Positions 8,522 to 56,060 of a DNA stretch of 64,000 nucleotides are shown piece by piece; position 1 is the stretch's first letter; each line of letters starts with the position of its first letter. The notes under the pieces were generated by a model, which was not told where the DNA came from, did no database searches, and was given only the letters and a program-made list of their open reading frames with translations. Made by a program: the position numbers and the translations under genes. The DNA comes from an uncultured Parcubacteria group bacterium (GTDB lineage Bacteria; Patescibacteriota; Patescibacteriia; UBA9934; CAMTUG01), in assembly GCA_947084965.1 (NCBI GenBank), contig CAMTUG010000002.1, forward strand, positions 15,434 to 79,433. Direction: 5' to 3'.

Positions 8522-8543
8522 ATGCGGCTATGATGCCACAGAT

Positions 8544-9566: not shown

Positions 9567-9639
9567 ACAAAAAGAGGCGCTAGGCCTCCTTGATGCGTTC
9601 ACTATACAACACCCCGCCGCTTGAGTACAATCCGTCCAT

Positions 9640-40183: not shown

Positions 40184-42514
40184 ATGGCCTACAATCACAA
40201 GCAATTAGAAAAAAAGTGGCAGGAAAAATGGGAGAAAGAAGAGCCGTGGAAGGCCGAAGATCAATCGACCAAGCCGAAGTTTTATTGTTTGGTAGAGTTT
40301 CCTTATCCCTCTGGAGCGGGGTTGCACGTTGGGCATCCGCGCAGTTACTCCGCACTGGATGCTGTGGTTCGCAAACGCCGGATGGAAGGGTTTAATGTGC
40401 TCTATCCGATCGGCTGGGACGCCTTTGGATTGCCGACGGAAAACTACGCCATCAAAACCGGCCGTAAGCCGCAAGAGATCACCAACGAAAATACCGACAC
40501 CTTCCGCCGTCAATTGAAAGCTCTCGGACTGAGTTTTGATTGGTCACGCGAGGTGAACACCACCGACCCCGCCTACTACAAATGGACGCAGTGGATGTTT
40601 CTTGAGTTTTTCAAAGCTGGTCTCGCCTACAAAGCGAAGACGATGATCAACTGGTGTCCGAAAGACAAAATCGGTTTGGCGAACGAAGAGGTGGTCCAGG
40701 GCTGTTGCGAGCGCTGCGGTACAACTGTCGAAAAGCGCGAGAAGGAACAGTGGATGATCGCCATTACCAAATACGCGGATCGGTTGATTGATGATTTGAA
40801 GACCGTAAATTACTTACCGAAGATCGCCAAGCAGCAAGAGGATTGGATCGGTCGCAGTGAAGGGGCAGAGATAAATTTCGAAATCCGAAATCCAAAATCC
40901 GAAACAAATCCGAAAGAGGAAAGCGCAAAAAAACATTTTGTTAAAGTTTTCACTACCCGTCCAGACACGATCGACGGCGCCACCTTTGTGGTGATCTCGC
41001 CGGAGTTGGCGAAGACATGGATGGATATTGGCTGGCAGGCATCGGATGAAGTTCGTGCCTATGTGGATAGTGCGCTGAAACGTGAAGAGGCGGATCGCAC
41101 GGCCGAGGGGAAAGAAAAAACCGGCGTTGACGCCGGGATCAAAGCGATCAATCCGTTCAATCAAGAAGAGGTTGCTGTTTGGGTCGCGGACTATGTACTT
41201 GGTCACTATGGCACAGGGGCGATCATGGCCGTGCCGCAGCATGACGAACGCGATCGCGAATTTGCCGATGCGTTTGGATTACCGATCGTTGACCGCCCAT
41301 TGATTGCGTTTGATGAAGCGGTTGCCAAAGTCGGTGGGGTCAAAACAACAAAATATAAACTGCGTGATTGGGTTTTTTCACGTCAGCGGTACTGGGGCGA
41401 GCCGATCCCGCTCGTGCATTGTGAAGAGCATGGCTGGGTGGCGGTTCCAGAGTCGGAGTTGCCAGTCGTGTTACCTCCGGTTGAAAAGTATGAACCGACC
41501 GACAACGGGGAATCGCCGCTTGCCGAGATTGCGGAGTTTGTGAACACCCAGTGTCCAACATGTGGCGGTCCTGCCAAGCGCGAGACAGACACGATGCCAA
41601 ATTGGGCAGGGTCCTCCTGGTACTTCCTCCGCTACATCGATCCGCAGAATGATCAACAGTTTGCCTCAGCCGAAAAGTTGAAGCATTGGATGCCGATCGA
41701 TCTGTACAACGGCGGAATGGAACACACTACGCTGCACTTGCTGTACTCGCGTTTTTGGAACAAGTTCTTGTTTGATAAAGGTCTCGTGCCAACGTCTGAA
41801 CCGTACGCTCGTCGTCACTCGCACGGCTTGGTGATGGCTGAAGATGGAACGAAGATGTCGAAGTCAAAAGGGAACGTGATTAATCCAGACGAAATCGTCG
41901 AGCAGTACGGCGCCGATGCACTGCGCACGTACATCATGTTCATGGGGCCGTTCGAAGAACCGGTGCCGTGGTCAACCAACGGGTTGATCGGCGTGCGTCG
42001 TTTTCTCGATAAGGTGATGACGATGAGCGAGAAGATTGGTGGGGGACCAAATGTCGAGCTCGCTCGGGTCATGGCAAAGACGATCAAAAAGATCGGTGAT
42101 GATATTGAAGCGATGAAGTTTAACACTGCGATCGCTCAGCTGATGATCTGTGTGAATGCGATGCAGGATGCCGGGGCGGTTTCATCAGAGCTTTTTGCTT
42201 CGTTCCTCAAAGTGTTGTTTCCATTCGCGCCGCACATCGCCAGCGAGCTTTGGGAAAAGACCGGCTACACCACCCTACTCGATACGGAATCCTGGCCGAC
42301 GTATGATCCGGCATTGATTGTCGATGATGTTGTTACGCTTGCGGTGCAAGTTGCCGGTAAATTGCGCGGGACGATTCAGGTCGCTCCGACCGCTGAACAA
42401 ACCGAAGTCGAACCACCCGCGCGGGCGGAAGAAAATGTTGCCAAGTGGCTTGAAGGTCAGGAAGTGAAAAAAGTAGTGTACGTTCCTGGCCGGATGATCA
42501 ACTTTGTGATTTGA
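40184..42514 (+). CDS. leuS: leucyl-tRNA synthetase
   Basis: HVGHPRSY (HIGH), KMSKSKGN (KMSKS), VFTTRPDTIDGATFVV editing-domain motif; contains an in-frame copy of the heptamer repeat element at 40874-40918. Confidence 0.95.
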   Translation: MAYNHKQLEKKWQEKWEKEEPWKAEDQSTKPKFYCLVEFPYPSGAGLHVGHPRSYSALDAVVRKRRMEGFNVLYPIGWDAFGLPTENYAIKTGRKPQEITNENTDTFRRQLKALGLSFDWSREVNTTDPAYYKWTQWMFLEFFKAGLAYKAKTMINWCPKDKIGLANEEVVQGCCERCGTTVEKREKEQWMIAITKYADRLIDDLKTVNYLPKIAKQQEDWIGRSEGAEINFEIRNPKSETNPKEESAKKHFVKVFTTRPDTIDGATFVVISPELAKTWMDIGWQASDEVRAYVDSALKREEADRTAEGKEKTGVDAGIKAINPFNQEEVAVWVADYVLGHYGTGAIMAVPQHDERDREFADAFGLPIVDRPLIAFDEAVAKVGGVKTTKYKLRDWVFSRQRYWGEPIPLVHCEEHGWVAVPESELPVVLPPVEKYEPTDNGESPLAEIAEFVNTQCPTCGGPAKRETDTMPNWAGSSWYFLRYIDPQNDQQFASAEKLKHWMPIDLYNGGMEHTTLHLLYSRFWNKFLFDKGLVPTSEPYARRHSHGLVMAEDGTKMSKSKGNVINPDEIVEQYGADALRTYIMFMGPFEEPVPWSTNGLIGVRRFLDKVMTMSEKIGGGPNVELARVMAKTIKKIGDDIEAMKFNTAIAQLMICVNAMQDAGAVSSELFASFLKVLFPFAPHIASELWEKTGYTTLLDTESWPTYDPALIVDDVVTLAVQVAGKLRGTIQVAPTAEQTEVEPPARAEENVAKWLEGQEVKKVVYVPGRMINFVI
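40874..40918 (+). repeat. heptamer repeat (AAATCCG-like x4) inside leuS coding sequence, in frame
   Basis: aaatttcg|aaatccg|aaatcca|aaatccg|aaacaaa|tccgaaa, ~85% identical to the trxA-trxB element; encodes EIRNPKSETNPKE, about 12 aa longer than this loop in E. coli/Thermus LeuRS. Confidence 0.55.
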
Positions 42515-42558
42515 TCGTTGAGGGTTATTTGGAATTTGAGATTCGGGATTTGGTGCTT

Positions 42559-43812
42559 ATGAAAGTTGTTGTTGTCGGAACGGGATACGTCGGCCTCGCC
42601 TGTGTCGGGTTCGTGACCATGGGTCACGAAGTTGTCGGGGTTGATGTTGATGCCGGCAAGATCGAACGATTGAATCACGGGGAGTTACCGATCCACGAAC
42701 CGGGGCTTGCCGAGCTTGTGATAGACGGAATGCGTGAGGGGAAACTTCGCTTTACGACGAATTTGCCGGAGGCGCTTACGGGCGCGGACGTTTGCTTTGT
42801 TTGTGTTGGGACGCCGTCGCTTCCTGATGGGAGCGTGGATTTGCAATACATCGAAGCAGCCGTCGCTTCTGTGCGAGCCGCGAAAGAACCACAGACGGTT
42901 GTTGTTATTAAGAGCACGGTGCCGGTTGGAACGTGCAATCGATTTGGTGTTGTTTCCAATCCGGAGTTTCTCGCGGAAGGACGCGCCGTACAAGACTTTT
43001 TACATCCTGATCGCGTGGTGATCGGCACGACCGATCCTCTGGCCAAAGAAGTCATGCTCGCGGTGTACGCTTCGCTCGACTGCCCAAAACTTGTGATGGC
43101 GCCAGCGTCGGCGGAACTGACCAAGTACGCGGCCAACGGATTTCTTGCCACCAAAATTTCATTCATCAACGAGATCAGTGCGATCGCGGAGAAAGTCGGA
43201 GCAGACATCCGCGATGTGGCGCAGGCGATCGGTGCCGATCCGCGTATTGGCCCGCACTTTTTGCGGGCTGGAATTGGCTACGGCGGATCCTGTTTTCCAA
43301 AAGATACAGAAGCACTGATGAAGATCGCGGATCTGAACGCTGTTGATTTTGCGATGTTGAAAGCGGCAAAAGTCGCCAACGACCGGGCCCGGGAACGGTT
43401 TGTCCAAAAGGTGATCGCTACAACGGGCGCGCAGGCTAAACTCGCGGTGTGGGGACTGGCTTTTAAAGCACAGACCGATGACGTGCGTAAGTCCGCGGCG
43501 ATTGATGTGATCGAATTGTTGCTTGCTCGCGGCGCCTCAATCACGGTCTATGATCCGATGGCGACCGAGAATGCCAAGAAGGTTCTCGGGGAACGTGTGC
43601 GCTATGCGTCCACCGCCCTCGAAGCAACGACCGAAGCGGATGCTCTCCTCGTTTTAACCGAATGGCCAGAGTTCAAAAACCTGATACCGGCTTCAGGAGC
43701 CGGTATCGGATTCCCGCATCATATTTTCGACGGTCGCAATCTGTTCGCAGATATGCACCTTGCAGAGAAGGGCTATGCCTACGTGGGTGTTGGTTTGGGC
43801 CAGACGGTTTAA
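42559..43812 (+). CDS. ugd: UDP-glucose/GDP-mannose 6-dehydrogenase family
   Basis: N-terminal Rossmann MKVVVVGTGYVGL, catalytic GGSCFPKD. Confidence 0.85.
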   Translation: MKVVVVGTGYVGLACVGFVTMGHEVVGVDVDAGKIERLNHGELPIHEPGLAELVIDGMREGKLRFTTNLPEALTGADVCFVCVGTPSLPDGSVDLQYIEAAVASVRAAKEPQTVVVIKSTVPVGTCNRFGVVSNPEFLAEGRAVQDFLHPDRVVIGTTDPLAKEVMLAVYASLDCPKLVMAPASAELTKYAANGFLATKISFINEISAIAEKVGADIRDVAQAIGADPRIGPHFLRAGIGYGGSCFPKDTEALMKIADLNAVDFAMLKAAKVANDRARERFVQKVIATTGAQAKLAVWGLAFKAQTDDVRKSAAIDVIELLLARGASITVYDPMATENAKKVLGERVRYASTALEATTEADALLVLTEWPEFKNLIPASGAGIGFPHHIFDGRNLFADMHLAEKGYAYVGVGLGQTV

Positions 43813-45166
43813 GAGCCCGTCGTGGCGACTCTTTTTTGTTTTATTGGCGTTCGTCTTTGGGGTTGGTGTGCATTCGTGGATTGACTCTCCTCTTCCGAGC
43901 GACGTGTTACTTATCGTAGCTGGGGGGTGTTTGCTGATCGCTGTCCTGCCGCTGCGCTACTCATGGATCGTATTTGTAAGTTTTGTCGCCTTCGCTTTTT
44001 TTCTCGGCCTGTGGAGATATACGGTCAGTTTTCCCGTCACCACAAACTCCATCGCTGATGTCATTGGAGCAGCCGTACGCGTGCAGGGAACGGTGGTCCA
44101 TGATCCGGAGCATCGCGAGGCTCGGCAGTCAATCATCCTTGACGATCTGTCTGTTAATGGGGAGAAGAAAGCAAACAAACTGATCGCCTTTCTCCCGCGG
44201 TATCCGGAATTACAGTATGGGGACGTCGTTTCGTTTCGTTGTGATCTCAAAGCGCCGCAACCGTATGATGGGTTTCGTTATGATCGTTATCTGCTCGCCA
44301 AAGGGGTCGTGGCGACCTGTTTTAGCTACGATGTACCGCTCGTGATTTCGCACAACGAGGGAGCGATTATTCGTCGTACGTTGTTTACGCTCCGTTCCGA
44401 GATGGAAGCCGCTTTGCATCGTGCACTTCCAGACACGCACGCGCGCCTCGCCGCCGGGTTGTTGCTTGGGGTGCAGGAACTTCCTGAATCAACCGAAGAG
44501 GCGTTTCGGGAAACAGGCACAGCACACATCATGGCTGCATCGGGATATAACGTCGGTGTGGTCCTTACGATCATGCTCGGTGGGGTTGCTTATGTTTTGG
44601 AACGCCGCCGGGCATTCTGGTTTTTATTGATCGGGTTGATCGTTTACGTTCTTCTCGCTGGAGCCGAAGCCGCAGTTGTCCGTGCGGGGATCATGGCGGG
44701 CGTCCTGCTACTTGCGCGTGAATCGGGTCGAGCAACAACGCCGCGCAATCTTCTCGTTTTGGCGGCAGTGATCATGCTCGCTGTCAATCCACGTTTGCTT
44801 CGTGATGATGTCGGGTTCCAACTCTCGATGCTCGCCACCGTTGGACTAGCGATCGCTGCACCAAAGATTTCTCAACGATTGGAGTTCGTACCTGAGGCGT
44901 TCGGTTTGCGTGAAGCGCTGAGCGCCACGCTCGCGGCAACACTGTTCACACTCCCCATCACCGTATGGAACTTCGGTGTGCCGTCCATCATCAGCCCGAT
45001 CGCCAACCTGCTCGTTCTTCCGTTCATTCCGTATGCCATGGCACTCTCGGCGATCGCTGGTCTTGCAGCCTGGATTGTCCCTTCCGTCGCTCCGTTCATC
45101 GGCGGTCTCGCCTGGGGATTTCTTGAGTTGATGTTACTGATCGTTGAAGCACTAGCCAGCGTATGA
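43775..45166 (+). CDS. comEC: ComEC/Rec2 N-terminal part (OB/DUF4131 plus polytopic competence domain)
   Basis: ~10 TM, ComEC-typical segments (AASGYNVGVV, FQLSMLATVGLA); start ambiguous (43760 or 43775), overlaps ugd 3' end. Confidence 0.8.
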   Translation: MPTWVLVWARRFKSPSWRLFFVLLAFVFGVGVHSWIDSPLPSDVLLIVAGGCLLIAVLPLRYSWIVFVSFVAFAFFLGLWRYTVSFPVTTNSIADVIGAAVRVQGTVVHDPEHREARQSIILDDLSVNGEKKANKLIAFLPRYPELQYGDVVSFRCDLKAPQPYDGFRYDRYLLAKGVVATCFSYDVPLVISHNEGAIIRRTLFTLRSEMEAALHRALPDTHARLAAGLLLGVQELPESTEEAFRETGTAHIMAASGYNVGVVLTIMLGGVAYVLERRRAFWFLLIGLIVYVLLAGAEAAVVRAGIMAGVLLLARESGRATTPRNLLVLAAVIMLAVNPRLLRDDVGFQLSMLATVGLAIAAPKISQRLEFVPEAFGLREALSATLAATLFTLPITVWNFGVPSIISPIANLLVLPFIPYAMALSAIAGLAAWIVPSVAPFIGGLAWGFLELMLLIVEALASV

Positions 45167-46038
45167 AAAAGCGGACACAAAAACAGATCTCGCTTCTCGT
45201 CGCACTTGTCGCGATGGTACTGCTCGCCGTCGCTCAGTGGGTATATGCCGGCCATACGCTCGGTGATGATCGCCTGATCGTCTGGTTTTTTGATGTGGGC
45301 CAAGGCGATGCGATTTACATCGAATCCCCCACAGGGTACCAGATGCTCATTGACGGTGGTCCGGGCGACGCGGTCCTTTCCAAGCTCTCGAGCGTCGTGC
45401 CGTTTTGGGATCAGTCGATCGATGCTGTCCTGCTGACCCATCCCCATGCTGACCATCTCGATGGGCTTGTTGAAGTTGTTGATCAGTACACGGTGGACGC
45501 TGTGTATCTCACTCATGTTGACTATTACACGCCCGCTCTCCCCGAGTTCGAACGAAGAGTTTCTGACGACGAGCAGATCGTCGAAGTCACGCGGCCGATG
45601 ATGATTGATTTGGGTGGAGGCGCACGCATGGACATCATCTTTCCGATTCACTCCCTCGTCAATCAACGGATCGACGACGTGAACGACTCCTCGATCGTTG
45701 CGCTTCTGACGTATGGTGGCACAACGGTATTACTCACTGGTGATGCAACCGCGCTTGAGGAACCCCAAATTGCGGAATCGATTGATGGGGAAGTGGACGT
45801 GCTAAAAGTCGGACATCACGGCAGTCGGTACTCCTCGAGCTCGGCGTTTCTTAAAGATATCGACCCAGAAGTCGCAATCATTTCTTGTGGTCGGGATAAT
45901 AGCTACGGCCATCCGCATCAAGAAACGCTCGAACGTCTCCGAGCGATTGGCGCCACGATTTTACGCACAGATACGATGGGAGATATCCGGCTTACGAGCG
46001 ATGGTAATGAACCCGAGCTTGTATCTCTGCCGCTCTGA
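45163..46038 (+). CDS. ComEC C-terminal MBL-fold domain as separate ORF with own TM anchor
   Basis: DVGQGDAIYIE, LLTHPHADHLDG, LKVGHHGSRYSSS, SCGRDNSYGHPH; ATGA overlap with upstream ORF, different frame. Confidence 0.8.
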   Translation: MKKRTQKQISLLVALVAMVLLAVAQWVYAGHTLGDDRLIVWFFDVGQGDAIYIESPTGYQMLIDGGPGDAVLSKLSSVVPFWDQSIDAVLLTHPHADHLDGLVEVVDQYTVDAVYLTHVDYYTPALPEFERRVSDDEQIVEVTRPMMIDLGGGARMDIIFPIHSLVNQRIDDVNDSSIVALLTYGGTTVLLTGDATALEEPQIAESIDGEVDVLKVGHHGSRYSSSSAFLKDIDPEVAIISCGRDNSYGHPHQETLERLRAIGATILRTDTMGDIRLTSDGNEPELVSLPL

Positions 46039-46096
46039 GCATCTTGACGAGCTTCGTACTCGGTGCTACGATTCGCACAATTAAACGTCAATTTTT

Positions 46097-46561
46097 ATGG
46101 GAGCAACGATCCAACGTACACTGATTCTCTTGAAGCCAGACGCCCTCCAGCGCGATCTGATCGGCGCGGTGGTCGGTCGATTTGAACGTAAAGGGTTGAA
46201 GATTATCGGGATGAAGATGATCCGTCTTGAAGACGCCGTTCTCGACACCCACTATGCCCACATCGCTGACAAGCCGTTCTACAAGGACGTCAAAGAATTC
46301 ATGATGTCGACCCCGGTCGTGGCCATGGTGCTCGAAGGCCAGGATGCGATCGCGGCTGTGCGCCTGATTCTCGGACCGACACGCGGATACGAAGCGGACG
46401 CCGGATCGATCCGCGGGGATTTCTCCATTGGGGTCGCCAGCAACTTGGTGCACGCTTCAGATTCCGCCGAAGCCGCGACTGCGGAGATCGATCGTTTCTT
46501 TAACGTCAATGAACTGTTTGAGTACGAAAAGATCACTGACAAGTTCTTTTACGAAGGTTAA
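46097..46561 (+). CDS. ndk: nucleoside diphosphate kinase
   Basis: LILLKPDALQRDLIG, catalytic His in NLVHASDS; terminator hairpin 46580-46609. Confidence 0.92.
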   Translation: MGATIQRTLILLKPDALQRDLIGAVVGRFERKGLKIIGMKMIRLEDAVLDTHYAHIADKPFYKDVKEFMMSTPVVAMVLEGQDAIAAVRLILGPTRGYEADAGSIRGDFSIGVASNLVHASDSAEAATAEIDRFFNVNELFEYEKITDKFFYEG

Positions 46562-46833
46562 CGAATTTCTAATTTTCCACAGAGCGTTTGACAGATGTCA
46601 GACGCTCTGTTACGTTTACTCCAGATATGGCTATTAACTCGATGCAGATTACGAAGTGGCTCGGACTCAACCTCGATTGTGTCCGTTTTGTCGTACTTCC
46701 GTACGCACGGGCGATGGCCAGAGTGGGTTGATAAGGAGAACAAACATGTTCTGAAGATCAAACCGGCCATCGCTCAACGAGCAGTGGTCGGTTCCGTTTT
46801 CAGAACCGTCAACGCACCTAGGGAGACCACACG

Positions 46834-47196
46834 ATGCCTGCTACCGCCGCCGCGCTCGCTTCCGTCATGTTCGCTGCCGAAGCCTACGTCCAGGGTGCCG
46901 ATGTTCCGATGGACGAAGTCCATGTCCACATCTGCATCCTCGAAATCCTCGGCCTGCGGGACGGTCAGCAGGTGATCCTCTACACCGGCGATCGACACGA
47001 CGCCGAGCGTCTGCAGAACCGGTCTCGCCATGGTCTGTCGACCCCTCAATGCGTCATCGTGCGCGCCGTCACGGACCAGAACAAGGATCGAAGCGTCCAG
47101 GTTCATGTCACGATTGCTGAGCTGATCCGCACGCACGGGGCCGGCATGGTCCTCTACTCGCGCAGCGGCAGTCGCGCCCTGGTTTCGCTGAGCTAG
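46834..47196 (+). CDS. hypothetical 120-aa protein with foreign GC3-rich codon usage
   Basis: GC ~65%, nearly all codons end G/C; SD AGGGAG 6 nt upstream; antisense 146-aa ORF judged spurious; followed by GC-clamp hairpin gccggcccgggaacactccccgggccggc. Confidence 0.5.
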   Translation: MPATAAALASVMFAAEAYVQGADVPMDEVHVHICILEILGLRDGQQVILYTGDRHDAERLQNRSRHGLSTPQCVIVRAVTDQNKDRSVQVHVTIAELIRTHGAGMVLYSRSGSRALVSLS

Positions 47197-47484
47197 AGCA
47201 TCTCGCTCGCTCACCCATCATCGCGCCGGCCCGGGAACACTCCCCGGGCCGGCCCAATCTCAACTTGCATCCAGGAATAAGATCTGTTAGCATCGTTTTG
47301 TCCTATGGAATCTCTCCCTGCCAATTCAGTCGGGTTCGCTCAGCGCTATTGGGTTATTTTTAGCCTCGTCCTTATTAGCTGAGGTCATTTTTGTTCATAA
47401 ACGCGGCCACGTGAACAGGAATGACCTCGCCTAAAAGCGAGGCGTTTGCTTTTTAAGCCCCATTCCGCTAATCTCACCCTTCTT

Positions 47485-48249
47485 ATGCCAGCAAATCAAC
47501 CACAACAGTACAAAACGATCGGCATTATCGGCGGCGTCGGACCGATAGCTACGGCGGATTTTTTCCAGAAACTCTTGCGTCATGTGCATGCGAGTAAGGA
47601 TCAGGAGTATCCGCGGGTGCTGATCGATTCTGATTCCCGCATCCCTGATCGTACGGCAGCAATTCTCGGCACCGGGGAGGATCCGACACAGCAGCTGATC
47701 GCTGTTGGTCACAACCTCGCTCGGGCCGGAGCGGAAGTGCTGTGCATCCCGTGTAATACTGCCCATGCCTTTTTCGATCGCGTTCAATCATTCCTGAATA
47801 CCCCGATCGTTAACATGGTGGAAGAGGTCGCCAACGCGATTCAAAAAAAATATCCTGGAGCGCGGCGTGTGGGGATTCTGGCAACGACCGGTACACGGGC
47901 GGCGAAGATTTATGACCAAGCGCTTGAATCTCGCGGACTGACCGCGGTGCATGTCTCGGAGGTCATTCAGGAGATGTATGTGATGGAAGCGATTTATGGA
48001 CGAGAGGGGATCAAAGCTGGTGGAATGTCCGTTCCAAAACAGCTGCTTGAGAAAGCGATTCGCGAACTGGAACGTGCTGGAGCGGATGTCGTGGTCCTGG
48101 CCTGTACAGAATTGCCGATCGTTCTTCAGGAAGCTTCGCTTCCGCTGATCGATAGTAATGCGGTCCTTGCTGACGCAGTGCTTGCTCGAGCGCGGTGTGG
48201 TTTAGAGCAGGAACAAGAGGCGTTCGGTCGCGTTCATTCCATAGCGTAA
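47485..48249 (+). CDS. Asp/Glu/hydantoin racemase family (aspartate racemase-like)
   Basis: Two-Cys racemase motifs (IPCNTAH, LACTELP); host-like codon usage. Start at MPANQP. Confidence 0.8.
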   Translation: MPANQPQQYKTIGIIGGVGPIATADFFQKLLRHVHASKDQEYPRVLIDSDSRIPDRTAAILGTGEDPTQQLIAVGHNLARAGAEVLCIPCNTAHAFFDRVQSFLNTPIVNMVEEVANAIQKKYPGARRVGILATTGTRAAKIYDQALESRGLTAVHVSEVIQEMYVMEAIYGREGIKAGGMSVPKQLLEKAIRELERAGADVVVLACTELPIVLQEASLPLIDSNAVLADAVLARARCGLEQEQEAFGRVHSIA

Positions 48250-48336
48250 CCCGCACATCTCCCGAACGTTTCGGGGGATGAACGGGGTGCACTATGGCCC
48301 CACCGTCGACACACCCAACCCAGCGAGGAAACCGCC

Positions 48337-49698
48337 ATGAAGCCGAAGCTCTACACCCACCGTCAGGATTCCGTCTCCCAGCTCATCGTCCGCCTGCTCG
48401 AGGGACGGACGCTCGACATCACCGTGGAGGGCAAGCAGGGGCCCTTGGAGCACATCGTGCTCGAAGGTGACGACCAGATCGCCGATCCCCGCGGGATCGC
48501 CCTCTTCTCCGTGTCGGGCACGCTCGACTGGCCCAACCGTCACCTGCGCATGCCGCCGTTCCAGATCAACGGCGGCCCGCCGGCCTGGTGCCGCGAGACC
48601 CCCTTCACCGTCGGGGTCCGTCTCGCCTCGGTCGAGAGCACCCTCGGCCACGCCGGTCACCGAGCCCACGACGGCACCCTTCCGCAGGCGATCCGCCACA
48701 TGCTCGTCGACTACGCCAAGTGGGTGCCGGGTGGTCTGAACCAGACCCCCTGGCACATCGGCGGCGGATCGGGACTCTCCGACGAGACCCGGGCCGGGTT
48801 GCACGACTGGCTGGGCTTCGTCCGGGATGTGTACGTCGCCGACTTCGCCGAGCGGGCGCTCGAGGGCGTGACCCCGATCTGGGGCGATGCGGAGTCCCTG
48901 CGTCGCGCCATCAAGGCCGGGAACGGCCGTACCCGCCTCTTCGTGATGGGGTGTGCGCCGTTCAACGACCCACACACCGACATCGCCACCAAGCTCCGTC
49001 CCGACAAGGCCACCGCGGCTCGCGAAGAGATCGAGCGGTTCCTGCGCGCCAGCGGTGCCTGGATCCAGGACACGACGTTCGTCGTGGTCAGCGGGGACTT
49101 CATGGGCCACCCGGCGCTCAAGGCTTCGCTCCACCCCTTCTTCTTCCGCGCGATCGCGGATCTCGAGGAGAAGCTCGGTCGGACCTTCGACCCGGACTGC
49201 CGTCTGGGCGGCCGCGTCGGTGTCCGGACCGACGAGGAGATCGCCGAGGTCCTCGAGTTCGGCTACCGCATGATCGACCGCGAGCTGGTCACCCCGATCC
49301 GCCAGGCCGTGAACCTGCCGATCGCGACCAAGGCCTGGACCGACGCCTTCCCCCGTCACTACTTCGACGAGGGGGCGGCGATGGCCTCGGAGAACCCGGC
49401 GGTCACCCGCATCATCGAGGAGATCTACGAGGAGCGGGTGCGGACCCGCGAGTGGTACAAGACGGTCGCCGATGCCCTCGGCAGCGACGCTGGGCTCGAG
49501 CGCACCCGGGCCAACGTGGCGATCTACCTCGCCATCGCGCTGTGGATGCGCGACAACCCGGACGCCGTGAACCTCGACACCGAGGTCGACGACCAGTTCT
49601 GGATCCGCCTCGGGCCCGTGCTCAAGGAGATCTGGGGCGACAACGTCCCCTTCATCGGCCACATCGCGCCCCGGGCCCGCCAGCCCTGGGCGTACTAG
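48337..49698 (+). CDS. 453-aa protein of unknown function, strongly foreign composition (GC ~68%, GC3 ~90%)
   Basis: Coherent amino-acid composition in this frame only; overlapping long ORFs in other frames are low-complexity R/P/A artefacts. No diagnostic motif recognised. Confidence 0.65.
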   Translation: MKPKLYTHRQDSVSQLIVRLLEGRTLDITVEGKQGPLEHIVLEGDDQIADPRGIALFSVSGTLDWPNRHLRMPPFQINGGPPAWCRETPFTVGVRLASVESTLGHAGHRAHDGTLPQAIRHMLVDYAKWVPGGLNQTPWHIGGGSGLSDETRAGLHDWLGFVRDVYVADFAERALEGVTPIWGDAESLRRAIKAGNGRTRLFVMGCAPFNDPHTDIATKLRPDKATAAREEIERFLRASGAWIQDTTFVVVSGDFMGHPALKASLHPFFFRAIADLEEKLGRTFDPDCRLGGRVGVRTDEEIAEVLEFGYRMIDRELVTPIRQAVNLPIATKAWTDAFPRHYFDEGAAMASENPAVTRIIEEIYEERVRTREWYKTVADALGSDAGLERTRANVAIYLAIALWMRDNPDAVNLDTEVDDQFWIRLGPVLKEIWGDNVPFIGHIAPRARQPWAY

Positions 49699-49707
49699 GA
49701 GGGCCAC

Positions 49708-50445
49708 ATGGCCATCCGAACCCTGACCATCCACGACCGCGAGATCAAGATCGAGGAGAACCCCCGCGTCTGGATGCCTACCGTCTTCGGCGAGACCCTC
49801 GCGGGCCTCCTCGCCGAAGCGATCCAGCCGGGTGACCGCGTCCTCGACTTCGGCACCGGCTCCGGGATCCAGACGGTTTCTGCCCTCGCCTTCAATGCGG
49901 GGCACGTCACCGCTCTCGACTACAACTCCGCTGCGCTCGACGCGGTCAAGGCGAACGTCCTCCTGAACGGCTTCACCCCGAACGTCTGCGTCGAGACGAT
50001 GCGGTCCAATCTCTTCGGAACGCTCAACTTGCGTCGCGGCTTCGAAGGGGCCTTCGATCTTCTCGTCTGCAATCCCCCGACCTTCCCGGTCGAGCCCCCG
50101 CAGACGGGCGATCGGATGATGGTCGAGTGGGAGCACGCCGGCCGCGACGGGCGACTGCTCCTCGACGCCTGCCTCGACCAGGGCCCTCGGTTCCTCAAGG
50201 TGGGCGGTCGACTCCTCGTGATCTCCACTTCGACCCAGCGGTGGAGTGTGACGCGAGAGAAGCTCCAACGTCAGTGGGGCAGCTACCGGGTCCTTCGCGA
50301 GATCGACATCCCGCTCGCCGACCACTACCGCGTGTTCTTCAGCCGCTGGCGCGAACTGGCGCGTCGCACCGGCGAACCGATCGTCTTCGACGTCGACGGC
50401 GTCCTCCACCAGAAGCTGACCTTCATCGAGGCCACGCGCAGCTAG
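49708..50445 (+). CDS. class I SAM-dependent methyltransferase, HemK/PrmC/TrmN6-like small MTase domain (motif IV NPPTF)
   Basis: Motif I VLDFGTGSGIQ, motif IV VCNPPTFPV, substrate-loop-like WMPTVFGETL; same foreign codon usage; 9-nt gap after upstream ORF. Confidence 0.75.
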   Translation: MAIRTLTIHDREIKIEENPRVWMPTVFGETLAGLLAEAIQPGDRVLDFGTGSGIQTVSALAFNAGHVTALDYNSAALDAVKANVLLNGFTPNVCVETMRSNLFGTLNLRRGFEGAFDLLVCNPPTFPVEPPQTGDRMMVEWEHAGRDGRLLLDACLDQGPRFLKVGGRLLVISTSTQRWSVTREKLQRQWGSYRVLREIDIPLADHYRVFFSRWRELARRTGEPIVFDVDGVLHQKLTFIEATRS

Positions 50446-50525
50446 TAGGGGCCTGACCGCCGACCGACTCACGGGGGTGTCCAGCACTTGGACACCCCCA
50501 TCGTCTTTCTTTATACTTACACCGT

Positions 50526-51515
50526 ATGTACATCTTTGATCTGCATCAGGACATCAGTGACTCCATGCTTTACACCGCGCACGGCGATTTTTGGAAGAAA
50601 AACGATCTGCGCGACGGATGGAACGATTTTAGTTTGCCGGTAAACAATCAGAGCGACTTTGTGCGTTTGGGCGAGTCGGGCTTTAAAGCGATTTTCGGGG
50701 CCTGTTGCGCGATCGAAATTACAAAAGAAGGGAAGGTTGCCCCGTGCAAAGATCACCGTGCTGAAGTAGAAAGACACTTCGCGCTGTACCATCAGCTGGT
50801 GGAAGAGGGGCAGGGGAAGGTTCAGTTTATTTTGCGCCGTGATGATCTCGCGAAGATCAAGGATCATGCTTTGAGTTTTCTCCTTGCGGTTGAAGGGGCA
50901 GATTCGATCGACGATGAATTAGCGGTTGTCGATTGGTATGCCGCGCGTGGTGTGCGTTCCGTTGGTTTCACTTGGAACTATAATAATCGCCTCGCGGGTG
51001 GTTGCATGGAGGATGGCCGATTGAGTGACACCGGTCGTCGAGCGATCACGCGGATGGAAGAGCACGGGATCGTCCTTGATCTTGCTCACATCAACGAAGC
51101 GAGTTTTTGGGACTGCATGGAAGTTGCGAAGAAGCCAGTGATTATTTCGCACACCGCCTGCCGCGTCTGCTTTGACTCACCACGCAACGTTTCTGATGAG
51201 CAGATGCTGGCGGTGAAAAAGACTGGTGGAACGATCGGGATTTTTGGTGTACCGAAATATCTCGGAGCGCCAACCGTCGAAAAAATCATCGAACACATTC
51301 GGCACTGCGTCGGTGTCGTTGGAATCGACCATGTGTCTTTTGGAACGGATTTTGGATCGATGACCGCTCCGCAGCTGATCCCTGGGTTCGAGCATGTTTC
51401 CGATATGCCGAGCTTTATTGATCGGATGCGAGAATCTGGCTTTTCTGAAGAGGACCTGGAAAAGATCGGACACAAAAATATCGAACGCGTCCTCTGGCAG
51501 ACGCTGCCGACCTAA
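50526..51515 (+). CDS. membrane dipeptidase (peptidase M19)
   Basis: DLHQD, VEGADSIDDELAVVDWYAARGVRSVGFTWN, LDLAHINEASFWD, ISHTACR, FGTDF; followed by terminator aaaaatcgagctccagggagctcgattttt. Confidence 0.85.
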   Translation: MYIFDLHQDISDSMLYTAHGDFWKKNDLRDGWNDFSLPVNNQSDFVRLGESGFKAIFGACCAIEITKEGKVAPCKDHRAEVERHFALYHQLVEEGQGKVQFILRRDDLAKIKDHALSFLLAVEGADSIDDELAVVDWYAARGVRSVGFTWNYNNRLAGGCMEDGRLSDTGRRAITRMEEHGIVLDLAHINEASFWDCMEVAKKPVIISHTACRVCFDSPRNVSDEQMLAVKKTGGTIGIFGVPKYLGAPTVEKIIEHIRHCVGVVGIDHVSFGTDFGSMTAPQLIPGFEHVSDMPSFIDRMRESGFSEEDLEKIGHKNIERVLWQTLPT

Positions 51516-51550
51516 CGCAAAAATCGAGCTCCAGGGAGCTCGATTTTTGG

Positions 51551-51756
51551 TGTCTCAGAAATCAATCGGGTGGTCCGGCGAACCGTTTATACTTCTGGAT
51601 GCTGTGCCTTGCGGGGATCGAGTGCGGACAGACGTCTGTGCTACGACATCTCGTGGAGCTTCCTCCGAGACGTCCGTGTGCATCGTTCCGCAAGGCCTAG
51701 GCACGCTTCGTGAGTGATCTTGGTCCAAGACCAAACACGATTGCTTCTGAGACATA
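51551..51756. ncRNA. candidate ~200-nt structured RNA (long imperfect hairpin; 6S-like?) in intergenic region
   Basis: Ends pair (tctcagaa/ttctgaga); nested helices gccttgcgg/ccgcaaggc, palindrome cagacgtctg, ggagcttcctcc; no credible ORF. Identity unverified. Confidence 0.3.
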
Positions 51757-52071
51757 GGTATCATAACAATCAGGAGAGGTAGGTCAAAAAAGTTGCGCGC
51801 AGATTGTGCACGCGTTTATCCCCAAAATGGGGATAAACACAAAAAACCCGGGAACGGGCCTTTTGTTGGCGCTTCAGCACGATCGAATTCTGAACAGGCT
51901 CATGACCACAATAAGTGAGCATCTCCTGACTCTCGTCGACGGATTCAGCCGAAGCCGAATCGATCGATCTGGTTCAGGCGCGAGCCGCATCAGCTCTCAA
52001 GGTCCTCGCTTTCCGCTAAGACCATATCGGAGCTTTCGTTCAGAGTTGACCCTTTCAGAATACGACCGTAC

Positions 52072-52704
52072 ATGAAGCAAATCTATGATAGCATGAGGGG
52101 CATGGACCTCCAGAAAGAATTGCACAGGTTACGCACACCAAAGGCGGTGCAGGATTTCGTGAATGCCCTGGCTTTTAACTTTGAGGAAGATGGTGACACC
52201 TGCCACTCGCCGCGTCAGGTGCTTGAAGTCGGAAAGGCCCAATGTATGGAAGGGGCGATGCTCGCGGCGAGTGCTTTGCGGTTGCAAGGACAGCGTCCGA
52301 TTGTGCTGGATCTTGTCAGTACGGATGACGACTTCGATCATGTCGTCGCGTTATTTAAACAGCATGGATGCTGGGGGGCGATCTCCAAAACAAATCACGC
52401 GGTGTTGCGGTATCGCGAACCGGTGTATCGCACTGTGCGCGAACTCACGATGAGTTACTTTCACGAATATTTTTTGCAATCAAATGGAAAGAAGACGTTG
52501 CGCGCCTGGGCGACGGTGGATCTGACAAAGTTCGATCGGCGCGGATGGATGATCGCCGAGGAAGACGTTTGGTACATCCCTGAGTATCTGTGCGTGATCC
52601 CGCACCAGTCCATTTTGACGCCGGCGCAGGTCAGGGGGCTTCGCAAGGCCGAGCAGATCGAGCGTAAAGCCGGGGAGCACGTTGAGTGGAAAGAGCAAAA
52701 GTAA
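52072..52704 (+). CDS. transglutaminase-like (Cys-His-Asp) domain protein, cytoplasmic
   Basis: GKAQCMEGAMLAASALRLQG (Cys core) and DDFDHVVAL (His/Asp) resemble the transglutaminase-like cysteine peptidase fold. Confidence 0.5.
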   Translation: MKQIYDSMRGMDLQKELHRLRTPKAVQDFVNALAFNFEEDGDTCHSPRQVLEVGKAQCMEGAMLAASALRLQGQRPIVLDLVSTDDDFDHVVALFKQHGCWGAISKTNHAVLRYREPVYRTVRELTMSYFHEYFLQSNGKKTLRAWATVDLTKFDRRGWMIAEEDVWYIPEYLCVIPHQSILTPAQVRGLRKAEQIERKAGEHVEWKEQK

Positions 52705-52732
52705 CAAGTTGCTATTTTCCCGCTTTCCCATT

Positions 52733-52771
52733 ACGATTTATTTCGAAATTCGTATTTCGGATTTCGTATTT
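52733..52771. repeat. third copy of heptamer repeat element, abutting murA start codon
   Basis: cgatttatttcgaaattcgtatttcggatttcgtattt|ATG; reverse complement aaatacgaaatccgaaatacgaatttcgaaataaatcg matches the trxA-trxB element. Confidence 0.55.
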
Positions 52772-54076
52772 ATGAAGAAGTTATTGATTACCGGCGGAAC
52801 GCCTTGTAAAGGCGAAGTTCGGGTGAGCGGGGCCAAGAACGCAGCGTCGAAAATGATGATCGCCAGTTTGCTGACGGACGAGCCGGTAACCCTTTTAAAC
52901 ATCCCGCGGCAGCAGGAAACGGATATCACCAAAGAGATCTGTGGGATCATCGGGGCAGAAGCAAGTTTCCCCGAAGAACACACACTGACGTTACACACCA
53001 AAGAGATCAAGTCACGCTCGGTCGTTGCCTTGTCGCGCAAGAATCGCATCTCGATTTTGGCCACGGCACCGTTGTTGCATCGCGTGGGCGAAGCGATCGT
53101 TCCGATGCCAGCAGGGGACGCGATCGGTCCGCGACCGGTCAATTTTCATATTGATGCCCTTGAAAAGATGGGCGCCAAAATCGAGAACACATCTGAAGGA
53201 TTGCGTGCGACCGTTAACGGACGATTGAAAGGGGCGTTGATCGAATTGCCATATCCGTCCGTTGGGGCGACCGAGTCATCGATCCTGGCTGGTGTACTCG
53301 CCGAAGGGCGCACCGTGATTGTGAATGCCGCGATTGAACCAGAGATCATGGCCTTGATTAAGATGTTGCAGACGATGGGTGCAGTTATCGGCGTCGGAGC
53401 TGGGCGCGTGATCGAGATTTATGGCGTTGAAACGTTGCATGGCACGACGGTTCGGGTAATGCCGGATCCACTCGAAGTTGTTTCGTTTGCCTGTGTGGCG
53501 CTCGGCACGGGCGGGGAGATTTTGGTGAAAGATGCGGTGCACGATCACCTGGTTACCTTCTTGAACACCGTCCGTCGCATCGGCGGCGATTACGAAGTGC
53601 GCGACGATGGCATCGTGTTCCGCGGTTCGAAGTCCTACAAAGGGATTGAACTTGAGACGGATACCTATCCGGGGTTCCGCACGGACTGGCAGCAGCCGTT
53701 TGTCGCCGTACTCACTCAGGCCGAAGGGACGAGTGTGGTGCACGAAACGGTGTACGAAGATCGCTTTGCTTACACCAAGTCACTAAACGAAATGGGGGCA
53801 GAGATCGCCGTGTTCTCTAATTGTTTGGGAGAAATTCCGTGCCGGTTTAAAGGGAAGAATCATCGCCACAGTGCTGTCATTAATGGTCCGCGCAAATTGC
53901 ACGCCGCTAACCTTGAGTTGCTCGACATCCGCGCCGGTCTCGCTCTGGTCGTCGCAGCACTCATCGCCGAAGGCACTTCAGAATTGATCGTCGGCGAGCA
54001 CCTGGATCGCGGTTACGAAAAGCTCGATGAAAAGCTGATCTCGCTAGGCGCGAATATCAAGGTCGTTAATGAGTAG
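52772..54076 (+). CDS. murA: UDP-N-acetylglucosamine 1-carboxyvinyltransferase
   Basis: MKKLLITGGTPCKGEVRVSGAKNAASKMMIAS..., catalytic-loop region; start verified at 52772. Confidence 0.95.
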   Translation: MKKLLITGGTPCKGEVRVSGAKNAASKMMIASLLTDEPVTLLNIPRQQETDITKEICGIIGAEASFPEEHTLTLHTKEIKSRSVVALSRKNRISILATAPLLHRVGEAIVPMPAGDAIGPRPVNFHIDALEKMGAKIENTSEGLRATVNGRLKGALIELPYPSVGATESSILAGVLAEGRTVIVNAAIEPEIMALIKMLQTMGAVIGVGAGRVIEIYGVETLHGTTVRVMPDPLEVVSFACVALGTGGEILVKDAVHDHLVTFLNTVRRIGGDYEVRDDGIVFRGSKSYKGIELETDTYPGFRTDWQQPFVAVLTQAEGTSVVHETVYEDRFAYTKSLNEMGAEIAVFSNCLGEIPCRFKGKNHRHSAVINGPRKLHAANLELLDIRAGLALVVAALIAEGTSELIVGEHLDRGYEKLDEKLISLGANIKVVNE

Positions 54077-54287
54077 TTTTCATGAAAGGGGATTGACAGA
54101 ACGGGATTTTTCTGGTAGAAAGGGAGTATTACATTCCGGCAGTGATGCCGCTCGCACATACAGCTGTGCCGGCGGCGTTATTGTTTCACGCAGAGTTGGT
54201 GTTTCTCGAAAAGTCATTTTTTCAACCATAACCTATTCATTACCTAATCGCTACCTACGATTAACCTATTAATAACCTGATCGCTAT

Positions 54288-54476
54288 ATGTCTAAAAAAG
54301 TGATATTTTCGGTACCAGCACAGCTTGATGAACGGATTATGAAGTATCTCGAGACTTGGGGCTTCATGACCAAAGCGGAGTTTTTCCGTCACGCCGCCAT
54401 TACCTACCTGGACCGAAATGAAAAACAGACAGAGGCTCGAAAGATGGGTGTTCGATTACCACTGACTGCTTTCTGA
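54288..54476 (+). CDS. ribbon-helix-helix (CopG/Arc/ParD-like) small DNA-binding protein
   Basis: 62 aa; KKVIFSVPAQLDERIMKYLETWGFMTKAEFFRHAAITYL fits beta-strand/helix/helix; upstream direct repeats could be its operator. Confidence 0.5.
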   Translation: MSKKVIFSVPAQLDERIMKYLETWGFMTKAEFFRHAAITYLDRNEKQTEARKMGVRLPLTAF

Positions 54477-54526
54477 CATTTCAGAGAAAACCAAAAACAC
54501 CCCGGAAGGGGTGCTCTCGTTCCAGA

Positions 54527-54808
54527 TTATTTTTCTGGATGCGTTTTTTGTTTGGTCTTGGCGCGGTTGGTCGTAGCTTTGCGCTTGTGGCGGTTCACTA
54601 AGCGACGTTCGACGACCCCGAGCGTTTCGATAAAGGTCGGCTTTTTGGTGAGGGTGCGCAGGCAGCGGGTGCACATGCGGTAGGCCTTGCCGGCGATACG
54701 CTTGACCTGGATGTTCACCAGTTTACGCGTCTTCGTTTTGTTGTTGGCATGGCTGACGGTCTGGGCGCTTTGCGCTCCGCGGCCGCAGGTTTCACAAAAT
54801 CGGGACAT
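54527..54808 (-). CDS. rpmB: 50S ribosomal protein L28 (C-terminal extension)
   Basis: MSRFCETCGRGAQSAQTVSHANNKTKTRKLVNIQ.... Confidence 0.85.
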   Translation of the reverse strand: MSRFCETCGRGAQSAQTVSHANNKTKTRKLVNIQVKRIAGKAYRMCTRCLRTLTKKPTFIETLGVVERRLVNRHKRKATTNRAKTKQKTHPEK

Positions 54809-54884
54809 AGGATGTATTTAATCGTGGCCGGAGTGTAGCAATATCGACTCTTTTTGGCAAGAGGAGTAGGATTGGGGAGCAATT

Positions 54885-55565
54885 ATGTTCTTCTCTCTCT
54901 TAGCCCAGAACCCACTCGTAGCCGTTGCCTGGATCTTAGCGATCCTTATTTCTTTGACGATTCATGAATTCTCCCATGCCCTCATCGGGAAGCTGCGCGG
55001 GGACAGAACGGCCGAACGCGACGGCCGGTTAACCTTGAATCCATTGGCCCATATCGATTGGATGGGATTCATGGCGATGTTGTTTCTGGGGTTCGGTTGG
55101 GCTAAACCCGTGCCGTTCAATCCGTACAATTTACGCGACCCAAAGTGGGATTCTGTGAAGATCGCCCTTGCCGGCCCATTGTCGAACCTAGCGATCGCCT
55201 GTGTCTGTGCGATTATTCTTCGATCTTTAATCGCCTTTGGAGGGATTGTCGAGCTGAATCTGCTCGTTGTTTTTCTCGTTCTTCTCACGCTTCTCAACCT
55301 GTTCCTGATGTTTTTCAACATCATCCCGATTCATCCGCTTGACGGCTCCAAACTCTTTTTTGCCTTATTTGACGCTCCAAAGTACACGCAACTACGCCAA
55401 TTTGTGGCTGTACGGGGTCCGCAGATCCTCTTTTTCCTCGTCATCGCTTCACTCCTTACCAACCTCGATATCTTTTTCTTCGTTAGTGCTCCGGCTTACG
55501 CCGTCTGTGATTCATTGATTGGCGGGTCCTGTGTGAGCGTCCTGTATTCCGCTTTTGGAGTGTAG
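54885..55565 (+). CDS. site-2 protease family (peptidase M50) membrane metalloprotease
   Basis: HEFSHAL zinc motif in TM1, second motif region LDGSKLF, ~6 TM. Confidence 0.8.
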   Translation: MFFSLLAQNPLVAVAWILAILISLTIHEFSHALIGKLRGDRTAERDGRLTLNPLAHIDWMGFMAMLFLGFGWAKPVPFNPYNLRDPKWDSVKIALAGPLSNLAIACVCAIILRSLIAFGGIVELNLLVVFLVLLTLLNLFLMFFNIIPIHPLDGSKLFFALFDAPKYTQLRQFVAVRGPQILFFLVIASLLTNLDIFFFVSAPAYAVCDSLIGGSCVSVLYSAFGV

Positions 55566-55634
55566 TTCTTGACGTTTTTTGAGGTCAATGGTACCTTTTT
55601 GCCACTTGAAAACCTGTCATCTTGTTCGCGAATT

Positions 55635-56060
55635 ATGCCAACGATCAATCAACTCGTCCGTAAAGGCCGCAAGAAACCGACGACCAAATCGAAGTCGCCG
55701 GCGATGATGTTTAAATACGACTCGTTGCATCGCAAGCGTACCGAATACCGCATCGGTTCCCCGTTCAAGCGCGGCGTTTGCGTTAAAGTGACGACCATGA
55801 CCCCGAAAAAGCCGAACTCGGCTTTGCGTAAAATCGCCCGTGTGCGTCTTTCAAACGGGATGGAAGTCACCGCCTACATCCCAGGGGAAGGGCATAACTT
55901 GCAGGAACACTCGATCGTCATGTTGCGCGGCGGACGCGTGAAGGACTTGCCAGGTGTCCGTTATCACATCGTCCGTGGTCGCTACGACGCGGCGGGGGTT
56001 GAAGGGCGCGGTCGCAGCCGATCGATTTACGGGACCAAGAAGCCGAAAGCAAAGAAATAA
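55635..56060 (+). CDS. rpsL: 30S ribosomal protein S12 (with ~17-aa insertion)
   Basis: [14 protein letters not shown]...[59 protein letters not shown]; extra [19 protein letters not shown] between KSPA and PFKRGVC. Confidence 0.92.

Follow-up and report, generated by a model that had tools for sequence, protein, structure and literature searches.

Cyclodipeptide synthases (CDPSs) such as AlbC, YvmC, Rv2275 and Nbra-CDPS (Pfam CDPS family) have a Rossmann fold resembling that of the class Ic aminoacyl-tRNA synthetases (aaRSs). According to a review, the S37C variant of AlbC was crystallised in covalent complex with an intermediate analogue (PMC12945691), and amide N-methyltransferases are known as CDPS partners (PMC5767969; PMC7358741). 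The present analysis concerns a GC-rich tract of two genes in a stretch of 64,000 nucleotides from an uncultured Parcubacteria group bacterium (contig CAMTUG010000002.1, positions 15,434 to 79,433; hereafter the window, its first letter being position 1). The first gene encodes a 453-amino-acid (aa) protein of an undescribed and rare family (48337..49698, forward strand), and the second a 245-aa methyltransferase (MTase) dependent on S-adenosylmethionine (SAM) (49708..50445, forward strand). An earlier note, made from the sequence alone, had taken the pair for a foreign cassette. We give about an even chance to another reading, namely that the tract is a native, long-resident operon in which a CDPS-like enzyme is paired with an N-methyltransferase, and that its GC content is held up by a non-neutral force.

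The mean GC content of the window was 0.533 (sd 0.035), i.e. about 53%. Between about 48.2 and 50.5 kb, bins of 300 bp reached values of 0.62-0.72, showing that the GC step described in the earlier note is real. The tract at 48.25-50.50 kb has 66-72% GC, and the maximum found in 1-kb bins outside 48-51 kb was 0.571. The GC content at third codon positions (GC3) was 0.93 for the gene of the 453-aa protein and 0.88 for the MTase gene, compared with 0.616 ± 0.047 for 42 other open reading frames (ORFs) of the window (z = 6.6 and 5.6, respectively). First and second positions (GC1 and GC2) were raised too in both genes, only modestly. Base composition and codon usage are atypical in the way expected for a genomic island. 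The tract limits previously placed at 48.29 and 50.46 kb had to be shifted: the rise begins right after the stop codon of a racemase gene (48250) and the tract ends at a terminator-like hairpin (50473-50499). The spacer that forms the 5' leader of the operon (48250..48336, forward strand) has 66% GC and carries the ribosome-binding site GAGGAAA before the ATG; no sigma-70-like promoter was found in it. The two genes are separated by 9 nt in an operon-like arrangement, as had been noted, and the ribosome-binding site of the MTase gene (AGGAGGG) overlaps the stop codon of the first gene.

High confidence attaches to the anatomy and synteny of this operon. The loci of the family that were fetched all come from metagenome or read-archive assemblies. 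In the closest of them, locus L001, the order is racemase, homologue of the 453-aa protein (P0001), MTase and M19 dipeptidase, the same as in the window. P0001 was found on two contigs from different runs (L001 and L002), which are identical over 4.7 kb. In L001 the flanking genes have about 41% GC and the two middle genes about 60%, with GC3 values of 0.30-0.36 for the flanks against 0.69 and 0.67 for the middle genes. Amino-acid identity between the window and L001 was 58% for the racemase, 49% for the 453-aa protein, 53% for the MTase and 67% for the M19 dipeptidase. The rank order of divergence of the 453-aa protein follows that of the M19 dipeptidase and of the MTase, also when L007 and L008 are considered.

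Other loci display parts of the same arrangement around the family gene. In L007 the order is DUF5660, a small ORF on the opposite strand, family gene, MTase and M19 dipeptidase. In L008 it is M20 peptidase, small ORF, family gene and M19 dipeptidase; in L009 a racemase gene precedes the family gene. L005 contains an M20 gene, a small GC-rich ORF, the family gene and an alpha/beta hydrolase gene, L006 an M20 fragment followed by the family gene, and L015 the order DUF5660, M20, family gene and alpha/beta hydrolase. In L011 the family gene overlaps the MTase start. Two distant members of host-like composition, L012 (402-3965) and L013 (5722-9549), are convergent with metK (SAM synthetase), which is followed by cofD, and in L014 the family gene stands between genes for HtrA and an S9-like hydrolase. 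The recurring neighbours are thus M19 (window, L001 and L008, and in L007 via the MTase), M20 (L005, L006, L008 and L015), the racemase (window, L001 and L009), the MTase (window, L001, L007 and L011) and metK (L012 and L013).

It had been expected that in related genomes the racemase gene would be followed directly by the dipeptidase gene. This is not the case, as both genes stand between them in the only close relative (L001/L002). The operon is present at the same site there and adjoins the same genes in L007, L008 and L009, so that the absence from relatives typical of an island was not observed.

The 453-aa protein gave no match in Pfam, NCBIfam, PHROGs or PADLOC. A word-indexed search of 5.8 billion proteins yielded one homologue, P0001 (50% identical), and two were obtained with a profile. 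When the two-sequence profile was run with HMMER against 1.84 billion cluster representatives, 31 matches were found, about 20 of them clear. Full-length family members have 404-492 aa. In an alignment of 17 members the residues D11, W129, W158, C206, N210, T214, P267, R389, N393, Y397, A401 and E416 are invariant, and the motifs GCAxFNxPHTD and LHPF and a C-terminal RQPWxY can be recognised. C206 is present in all 17 sequences and is the sole conserved cysteine, among two to six cysteines per protein. Searching Pfam with the 17 members (E up to 1) gave isolated weak matches only, with no Pfam family being hit by more than one member, and the family profile matched nothing among the PDB sequences, CDPSs included.

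The structure predicted by AlphaFold2 from the 17-sequence alignment was confident, with a mean predicted local distance difference test (pLDDT) value of 88.4 and a predicted template-modelling (pTM) score of 0.84. In this model an N-terminal alpha/beta region (about residues 1-195) precedes a Rossmann core of the class Ic aaRS and CDPS type (about residues 196-453). The best structural match was the CDPS 5mlq (score 12.2; 194 of 226 residues aligned, 3.1 Å), followed by other CDPSs (12.1-9.2), catalytic domains of tyrosyl-tRNA synthetases (TyrRSs; 10.6-9.0), PvcA (9.0) and tryptophanyl-tRNA synthetases (TrpRSs; 8.7-6.6). On the strength of this predicted fold, the CDPS-like relationship of the 453-aa protein is proposed with moderate confidence.

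The family profile was also compared with four CDPS sequences taken from PDB alignments. A single, weak hhalign alignment was obtained, which sets llvmGCAxFN on hvlvGISPFN and would thereby place GCAPFN (residues 205-210) on the active-site strand and loop G-I-S37-P-F-N40 of CDPSs. In this alignment N210 corresponds to Asn40, the position of Ser37 is taken by residue 207 (A, P, C, V or M in the family) and C206 lies one residue upstream. The spacing of Y397, A401 and E416 resembles that of Tyr178, Glu182 and Tyr202 in CDPSs, to which they may tentatively correspond.

The second gene encodes an MTase of the HemK/MTS class. The motif I (LDFGTGSG, within VLDFGTGSG) and motif IV (NPPTF) pointed out in the earlier note are borne out by the sequence, and the best Pfam and NCBIfam matches agree with a HemK-type enzyme. 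In Pfam these were PrmA (2e-12) and MTS (1e-10). In NCBIfam every match remained below its cut-off: PRK14968, an archaeal-type putative MTase (79 bits, cut-off 162), PrmC (54, cut-off 199) and HemK2/MTQ2 (51.5, cut-off 87). The sequence relatives in the PDB include MJ0882, the aminoglycoside N-methyltransferase GenN, HemK, PrmA, N6AMT1 and m2G rRNA methyltransferases. Since these relatives act on nitrogen atoms, the MTase probably does so as well. Only three homologues were found in the database. Its orthologues adjoin genes of the 453-aa family in L001, L007 and L011, NPPTF is kept in all four MTases, and a C-terminal extension with the pattern IPLADHY...DGxLHQ is conserved.

A pathway can be sketched from these observations, with low confidence in its specific chemistry. 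The substrate bound by gene 1 would be an amino acid or aminoacyl-tRNA, from which an amide bond would be made without dependence on ATP, possibly via a thioester on C206, to give a dipeptide or cyclodipeptide. A cysteine nucleophile is chemically plausible because of the covalent AlbC S37C structure mentioned above. N-methylation of this product would fall to the MTase, whose gene is translationally coupled to gene 1, and the neighbouring racemase and M19 or M20 dipeptidases may supply, recycle or detoxify substrates and products.

Several points weigh against such a function. Sequence identity to CDPSs is only 7-11%, and the comparison by hhalign with the four CDPSs was not significant (E = 0.16, probability 0.4%). 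With its 453 aa the protein has double the length of a CDPS, and nothing informative was found among structures related to its N-terminal region. In the hhalign alignment the position of Ser37 is variable and Glu182 of the CDPSs may correspond to the invariant A401; for this reason gene 1 does not encode a canonical CDPS, and its product may not use tRNA. The PvcA/IsnA enzymes have the same fold and do not use tRNA; by analogy with them, a tRNA-independent chemistry is possible. The peptidase neighbours are also compatible with a catabolic or salvage role.

The earlier suggestion that the two proteins could form a self-protection pair found no backing: gene 1 lacks a match in PADLOC and PHROGs and the MTase has generic MTase-domain matches only. 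A restriction-modification or defence pair was rejected on the grounds that no defence family matches gene 1 and that the neighbours are metabolic.

In order to place the composition of the tract in the context of its family, the GC3 of the family gene was compared with that of its neighbours in 11 loci. All offsets were zero or positive, with a mean of +0.17 (Wilcoxon p = 0.001), and the GC3 of the family gene correlated with that of the host (r = 0.61). The largest offsets were those of L006 (+0.38), L001 (+0.36) and the window (+0.33). Intermediate values were obtained for L008 and L009 (+0.17 each), L005 (+0.16) and L007 (+0.14), and low ones for L015 (+0.09), L012 (+0.06), L013 (+0.03) and L014 (+0.01). 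The host GC content of the lineages ranges from 35 to 56%, with no fetched family locus above about 56%. Where only a short gap parts it from gene 1 (9 nt in the window, 2 nt in L001), the MTase gene is tightly coupled and GC-rich; in L007, where a gap of 104 nt separates it from gene 1 and it abuts the M19 gene, it is host-like.

Fourfold-degenerate sites under identical amino acids were then compared between the window and L001. The observed identities and those expected from composition were 0.21 and 0.23 for the racemase, 0.29 and 0.36 for the MTase, 0.26 and 0.22 for the M19 dipeptidase, and 0.43 and 0.34 for the 453-aa protein. As the observed values approximate the compositional expectation, synonymous sites between the two loci are saturated. 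The window copy nevertheless has a GC3 of 0.93, and a single old transfer that fades neutrally therefore does not fit. The transfer in question would be that of the earlier note moved back in time, from a high-GC donor such as an actinobacterial host into the common ancestor, with slow amelioration afterwards. It would account for the position and the terminator hairpin that the window and L001 share, for the GC3 near 0.9 and the dominance of C-ending codons in the window, and for the slight excess of shared fourfold bases between the 453-aa protein and P0001 (the 0.43 against 0.34 given above). With all four genes saturated and identities of 49-67%, however, neutral amelioration should by our reasoning be nearly complete. 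Moreover, the window (+0.33) and L001 (+0.36) hardly differ in offset, although their hosts are 0.27 apart in GC3, and the family is compositionally native in L012-L014. No family member was found in actinobacterial or other reference genomes, the 31 matches among 1.84 billion representatives being the whole yield of the HMMER search. Such an ancient transfer is considered improbable.

The preferred explanation is that a non-neutral, locus-specific force keeps the GC content high, which could be selection acting on the transcript or, if the locus is prone to recombination, GC-biased gene conversion. It is preferred because the window and L001 share the position of the tract, because the boundaries lie in the spacers in both lineages, because all offsets are directed upward and because no donor was found. 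This is the weakest step of the interpretation and it is advanced with low confidence. On the opposite side stand the distribution of the offsets, which are extreme in three loci only (window, L001 and L006) and close to zero in three others (L012-L014), and the fact that the host GC3 of several loci was taken from one to three neighbouring genes only. A few lineage-specific replacements by GC-rich alleles would also fit the pattern of offsets.

In its full form, this last alternative supposes that the operon is ancestral and that the resident copies of the window, L001 and L006 were repeatedly exchanged in situ for alleles of an unsampled GC-rich carrier, the GC excess being a recent import in each lineage. 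Codon usage speaks for it. Third positions follow C>G>T>A in the cassettes of both the window and L001, where their hosts differ, and the relative synonymous codon usage (RSCU) of the L001 cassette correlates at 0.79 with that of the window cassette and at -0.15 with that of its own host. The elevated GC1 and GC2, the GC-rich non-coding leader and terminator, and the restriction of large offsets to three loci, with L012-L014 near zero, are likewise in its favour. ComEC, which is the DNA-uptake channel in known systems, is encoded 3 kb upstream, and carriers of very high GC3 would be hidden from protein databases by antisense gene calls. On the other hand, caller-independent motif scans for close relatives in 185,579 species genomes and in JGI metagenomes revealed no GC-rich carrier, and no repeats or integrase were found. 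In the window and L001 alike, the flanking genes are spared and the change in GC content takes place within two short spacers, an outcome that homologous replacement would not be expected to yield twice. The offset is directed upward in every locus. We estimate that the window copy would require a donor of about 65-70% GC, and the fetched family loci reach a host GC of about 56% at most. Repeated replacement is accordingly regarded as possible, though rather doubtful.

The scans just mentioned were carried out on DNA with two 8-residue motifs common to the window and L001 proteins, with confirmation by tblastn. No close relative of the 453-aa protein was detected in this way in the species genomes (actinobacterial and other reference genomes among them) or in the JGI metagenomes, and a motif scan of IMG/VR gave none either. 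A metagenome scan with a 6-sequence alignment yielded three loci, and a scan of the genome collection with the dipeptidase yielded nothing. Because the genome-collection scans with the 453-aa protein and with the dipeptidase gave no result, no empty site was obtained. A search for repeats around the tract brought up neither direct nor inverted copies at its flanks, and no target-site duplication or terminal inverted repeats. The tRNA gene closest to it lies at a distance of about 24 kb (Rfam at gathering thresholds identified three tRNAs in the window and nothing else), and the annotated neighbours include no recognisable integrase. An insertion of foreign or host-derived DNA in recent times, as proposed at first, is thus not supported, given the same gene order and GC step in L001 and the lack of a donor, a mobility gene or repeats. 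An integron-type cassette was also rejected, as the 3' hairpin is a plain terminator with a perfect stem and no attC features, and as no integrase stands among the annotated neighbours.

The operon is opposed, on the reverse strand, by an ORF of 731 aa (48292..50487) that is not a gene. Its reading frame is the codon complement of the two real ones, as follows arithmetically from the coordinates, and it can for this reason be understood as a by-product of their GC3 near 0.9. It has no Pfam match. In L001 the antisense ORFs have only 268 aa and 158 aa, so that the long shadow ORF is not kept; a real antisense gene was ruled out on account of this break-up and of the codon-complement frame. A contig of the Logan assembly ERR3478686 was found to be 100% identical to window positions 40657-55835 over 15,179 bp. 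The public gene call on this contig (L010) replaces both real genes by an antisense gene of 726 aa (7636-9816, reverse strand), exactly the kind of error of which the earlier note had warned. By exact look-up, the 453-aa protein is not on record in a collection of 15 billion proteins, because the gene caller took the antisense ORF. Members of the family with very high GC3 may be systematically overlooked in protein databases.

The same contig bears on the question of whether the tract could be an artefact, namely an assembly chimera or else GC-rich non-coding DNA in which ORFs arose by chance. In favour of an artefact are the origin of the window, an assembly of metagenome type, and the location of the sharp GC steps in spacers. 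Both junctions of the tract are reproduced in ERR3478686, although this second assembly may share the reads of the window. Beyond that identical 15-kb contig, the same architecture occurs in L001 and L002 from two runs, about 20 clear homologues exist (17 of which share conserved motifs in an alignment), the fold was predicted with confidence, and MTase orthologues adjoin the family gene in three other loci. An artefact is therefore extremely improbable.

The conserved upstream neighbour of the operon is an amino-acid racemase of the Asp/Glu type (47446..48249, forward strand; Pfam Asp_Glu_race, 2e-42), which has a host-like GC content of 0.537. It scored 227 bits against the NCBIfam model of the cysteate racemase CuyB, above the cut-off of 190. 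The public gene call sets its start at 47485 (254 aa). The racemase gene occupies the same place in L001 (58% identity, as above) and in L009. The conserved downstream neighbour is a dipeptidase of the M19 membrane type (50526..51515, forward strand; Pfam Peptidase_M19, 2e-74), also host-like (GC 0.513), which keeps its place in L001, L007 and L008, being 67% identical in the first.

The spacer between the MTase and M19 genes contains the hairpin that ends the tract (50473..50499, forward strand). It resembles an intrinsic terminator, with a 12-bp stem that includes 8 G-C pairs and is followed by a T-rich tail. Its pattern, GGGGTGTNCANNNNNTGGACACCCC, has a single site in the window (on both strands, since it is palindromic) and one at the equivalent place in L001 (5341-5365). 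A promoter-like site, TGGACA-17-TATACT (50489..50517, forward strand), overlaps the terminator upstream of the dipeptidase gene; it was assigned by consensus match only. The TATACT box recurs at the equivalent place in L001. The stretch with hairpin and TATACT box is conserved in sequence between the two loci (window 50473-50517; L001 5341-5393), and since it is conserved while the surrounding fourfold sites are saturated, this suggests a functional regulatory element.

The cassette genes were said to differ in composition from every flanking gene. Their atypical composition is clear from the z values given above; the word 'every' does not hold, in view of an ORF with a GC3 of 0.77 at 46834-47196 and of a patch at 37.9-38.4 kb. 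The former is an orphan ORF of 120 aa on the forward strand, upstream of the racemase gene, with a GC content of 0.63, and a GC-rich hairpin (47220-47258) comes after it. It has no Pfam or PHROG match, and in the protein collection its exact sequence forms a 90%-identity cluster by itself. The patch reaches 0.67 GC and holds an ORF of 141 aa (37990-38415, reverse strand), flanked by the glutamate dehydrogenase gene and an unidentified ORF of 299 aa. When both ORFs were pooled, their codon usage proved to be cassette-like (RSCU r = 0.78). Small GC-rich orphan genes seem to be scattered across the genome from which the window comes. In L005 (292-4180), GC-rich orphans of 164 aa (64%), 461 aa (58%) and 99 aa (65%) surround an M20 gene of 45% GC, forming a gene-by-gene GC mosaic in which the orphans stand upstream of the family member.

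Further genes of the contig are core genes, encoding GyrA, IF-2, LeuRS, EF-G, EF-Tu, FtsH, RNase Y and PilB, the last at 11549-13303 of the window (reverse strand). The ComEC protein (DUF4131 and Competence domains) is encoded together with an MBL-fold protein at 43760-46038, just upstream of the ndk/racemase cluster. Between the M19 gene and murA lies an ORF of 210 aa (52072-52704, forward strand) with a weak transglutaminase-core match only (E = 0.006).

Taken jointly, the observations could describe a new tRNA-dependent, CDPS-like branch that works through a cysteine thioester, is restricted to an uncultivated and probably ultra-small lineage and makes a methylated dipeptide or cyclodipeptide from scavenged amino acids with the help of its dedicated N-methyltransferase, with the GC content of its operon held by a non-neutral force. 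In this complete form the proposal is unlikely. If it were true, nature would provide an example of amelioration being visibly opposed in lineages of 35-56% genomic GC. The analysis itself adds an unannotated enzyme family to the few proteins on the TyrRS/CDPS scaffold, with a candidate nucleophile that differs. The unusual conserved partnership with an MTase, dipeptidases and a racemase is a target for work on small-molecule synthesis dependent on tRNA or amino acids in poorly known bacteria. The locus also illustrates a failure of annotation, in which a GC3 near 0.9 led to the choice of the antisense frame and left both real proteins absent from the public collection searched. In addition, it calls for caution in inferring horizontal gene transfer from composition, as what looks like a textbook 'GC island' has the same gene order in relatives and a raised GC content in many lineages.

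The literature search retrieved nothing on CDPS-like enzymes, on DUF5660 or on CDPSs in the Candidate Phyla Radiation. In comparison with the CDPSs named at the outset, the 453-aa protein shares the class Ic aaRS-like Rossmann fold, as judged from the model, and has no detectable sequence relationship to them (7-11% identity, no Pfam match, no significant hhalign alignment). The solved CDPS chains have 204-289 aa in a single domain; full-length members of the family described here have 404-492 aa, the extra N-terminal region accounting for about 195 of these. The catalytic Ser37 has no conserved counterpart in the family, in which an invariant cysteine stands one residue earlier, and the genes next to it encode dipeptidases and a racemase instead of oxidases or P450s. 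The Rossmann core is likewise shared with TyrRS and TrpRS. The family alignment shows neither the HIGH nor the KMSKS motif for ATP of these class Ic enzymes, the loop after the first strand reading GCAxFNxPHTD. No domain for anticodon binding came to light and no aaRS model matched the 453-aa protein. With respect to the isonitrile synthases PvcA/IsnA, the structural score was below that of the CDPSs and there is no sequence similarity; their known partner, a dioxygenase of the PvcB/IsnB type, was not seen in any family locus.

The MTase of the operon shares the MTS fold, the GxGxG motif I and a motif IV of the NPPx(F/Y) type with HemK/PrmC, HemK2/MTQ2 (N6AMT1), PrmA and GenN. It differs from HemK, PrmC and MTQ2 in having NPPTF instead of NPPY and a C-terminal extension of its own, and in scoring below every equivalog cut-off. 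At the level of the locus, the closest parallels are compositional genomic islands and mosaic operons produced by xenologous displacement in situ, which likewise display a sharp break in GC content and codon usage at gene boundaries within a conserved gene order. The tract differs from genomic islands in having no integrase among the annotated neighbours, no nearby tRNA gene, no repeats and no donor. In addition, relatives carry its genes at the same place, and its GC excess recurs in the family.

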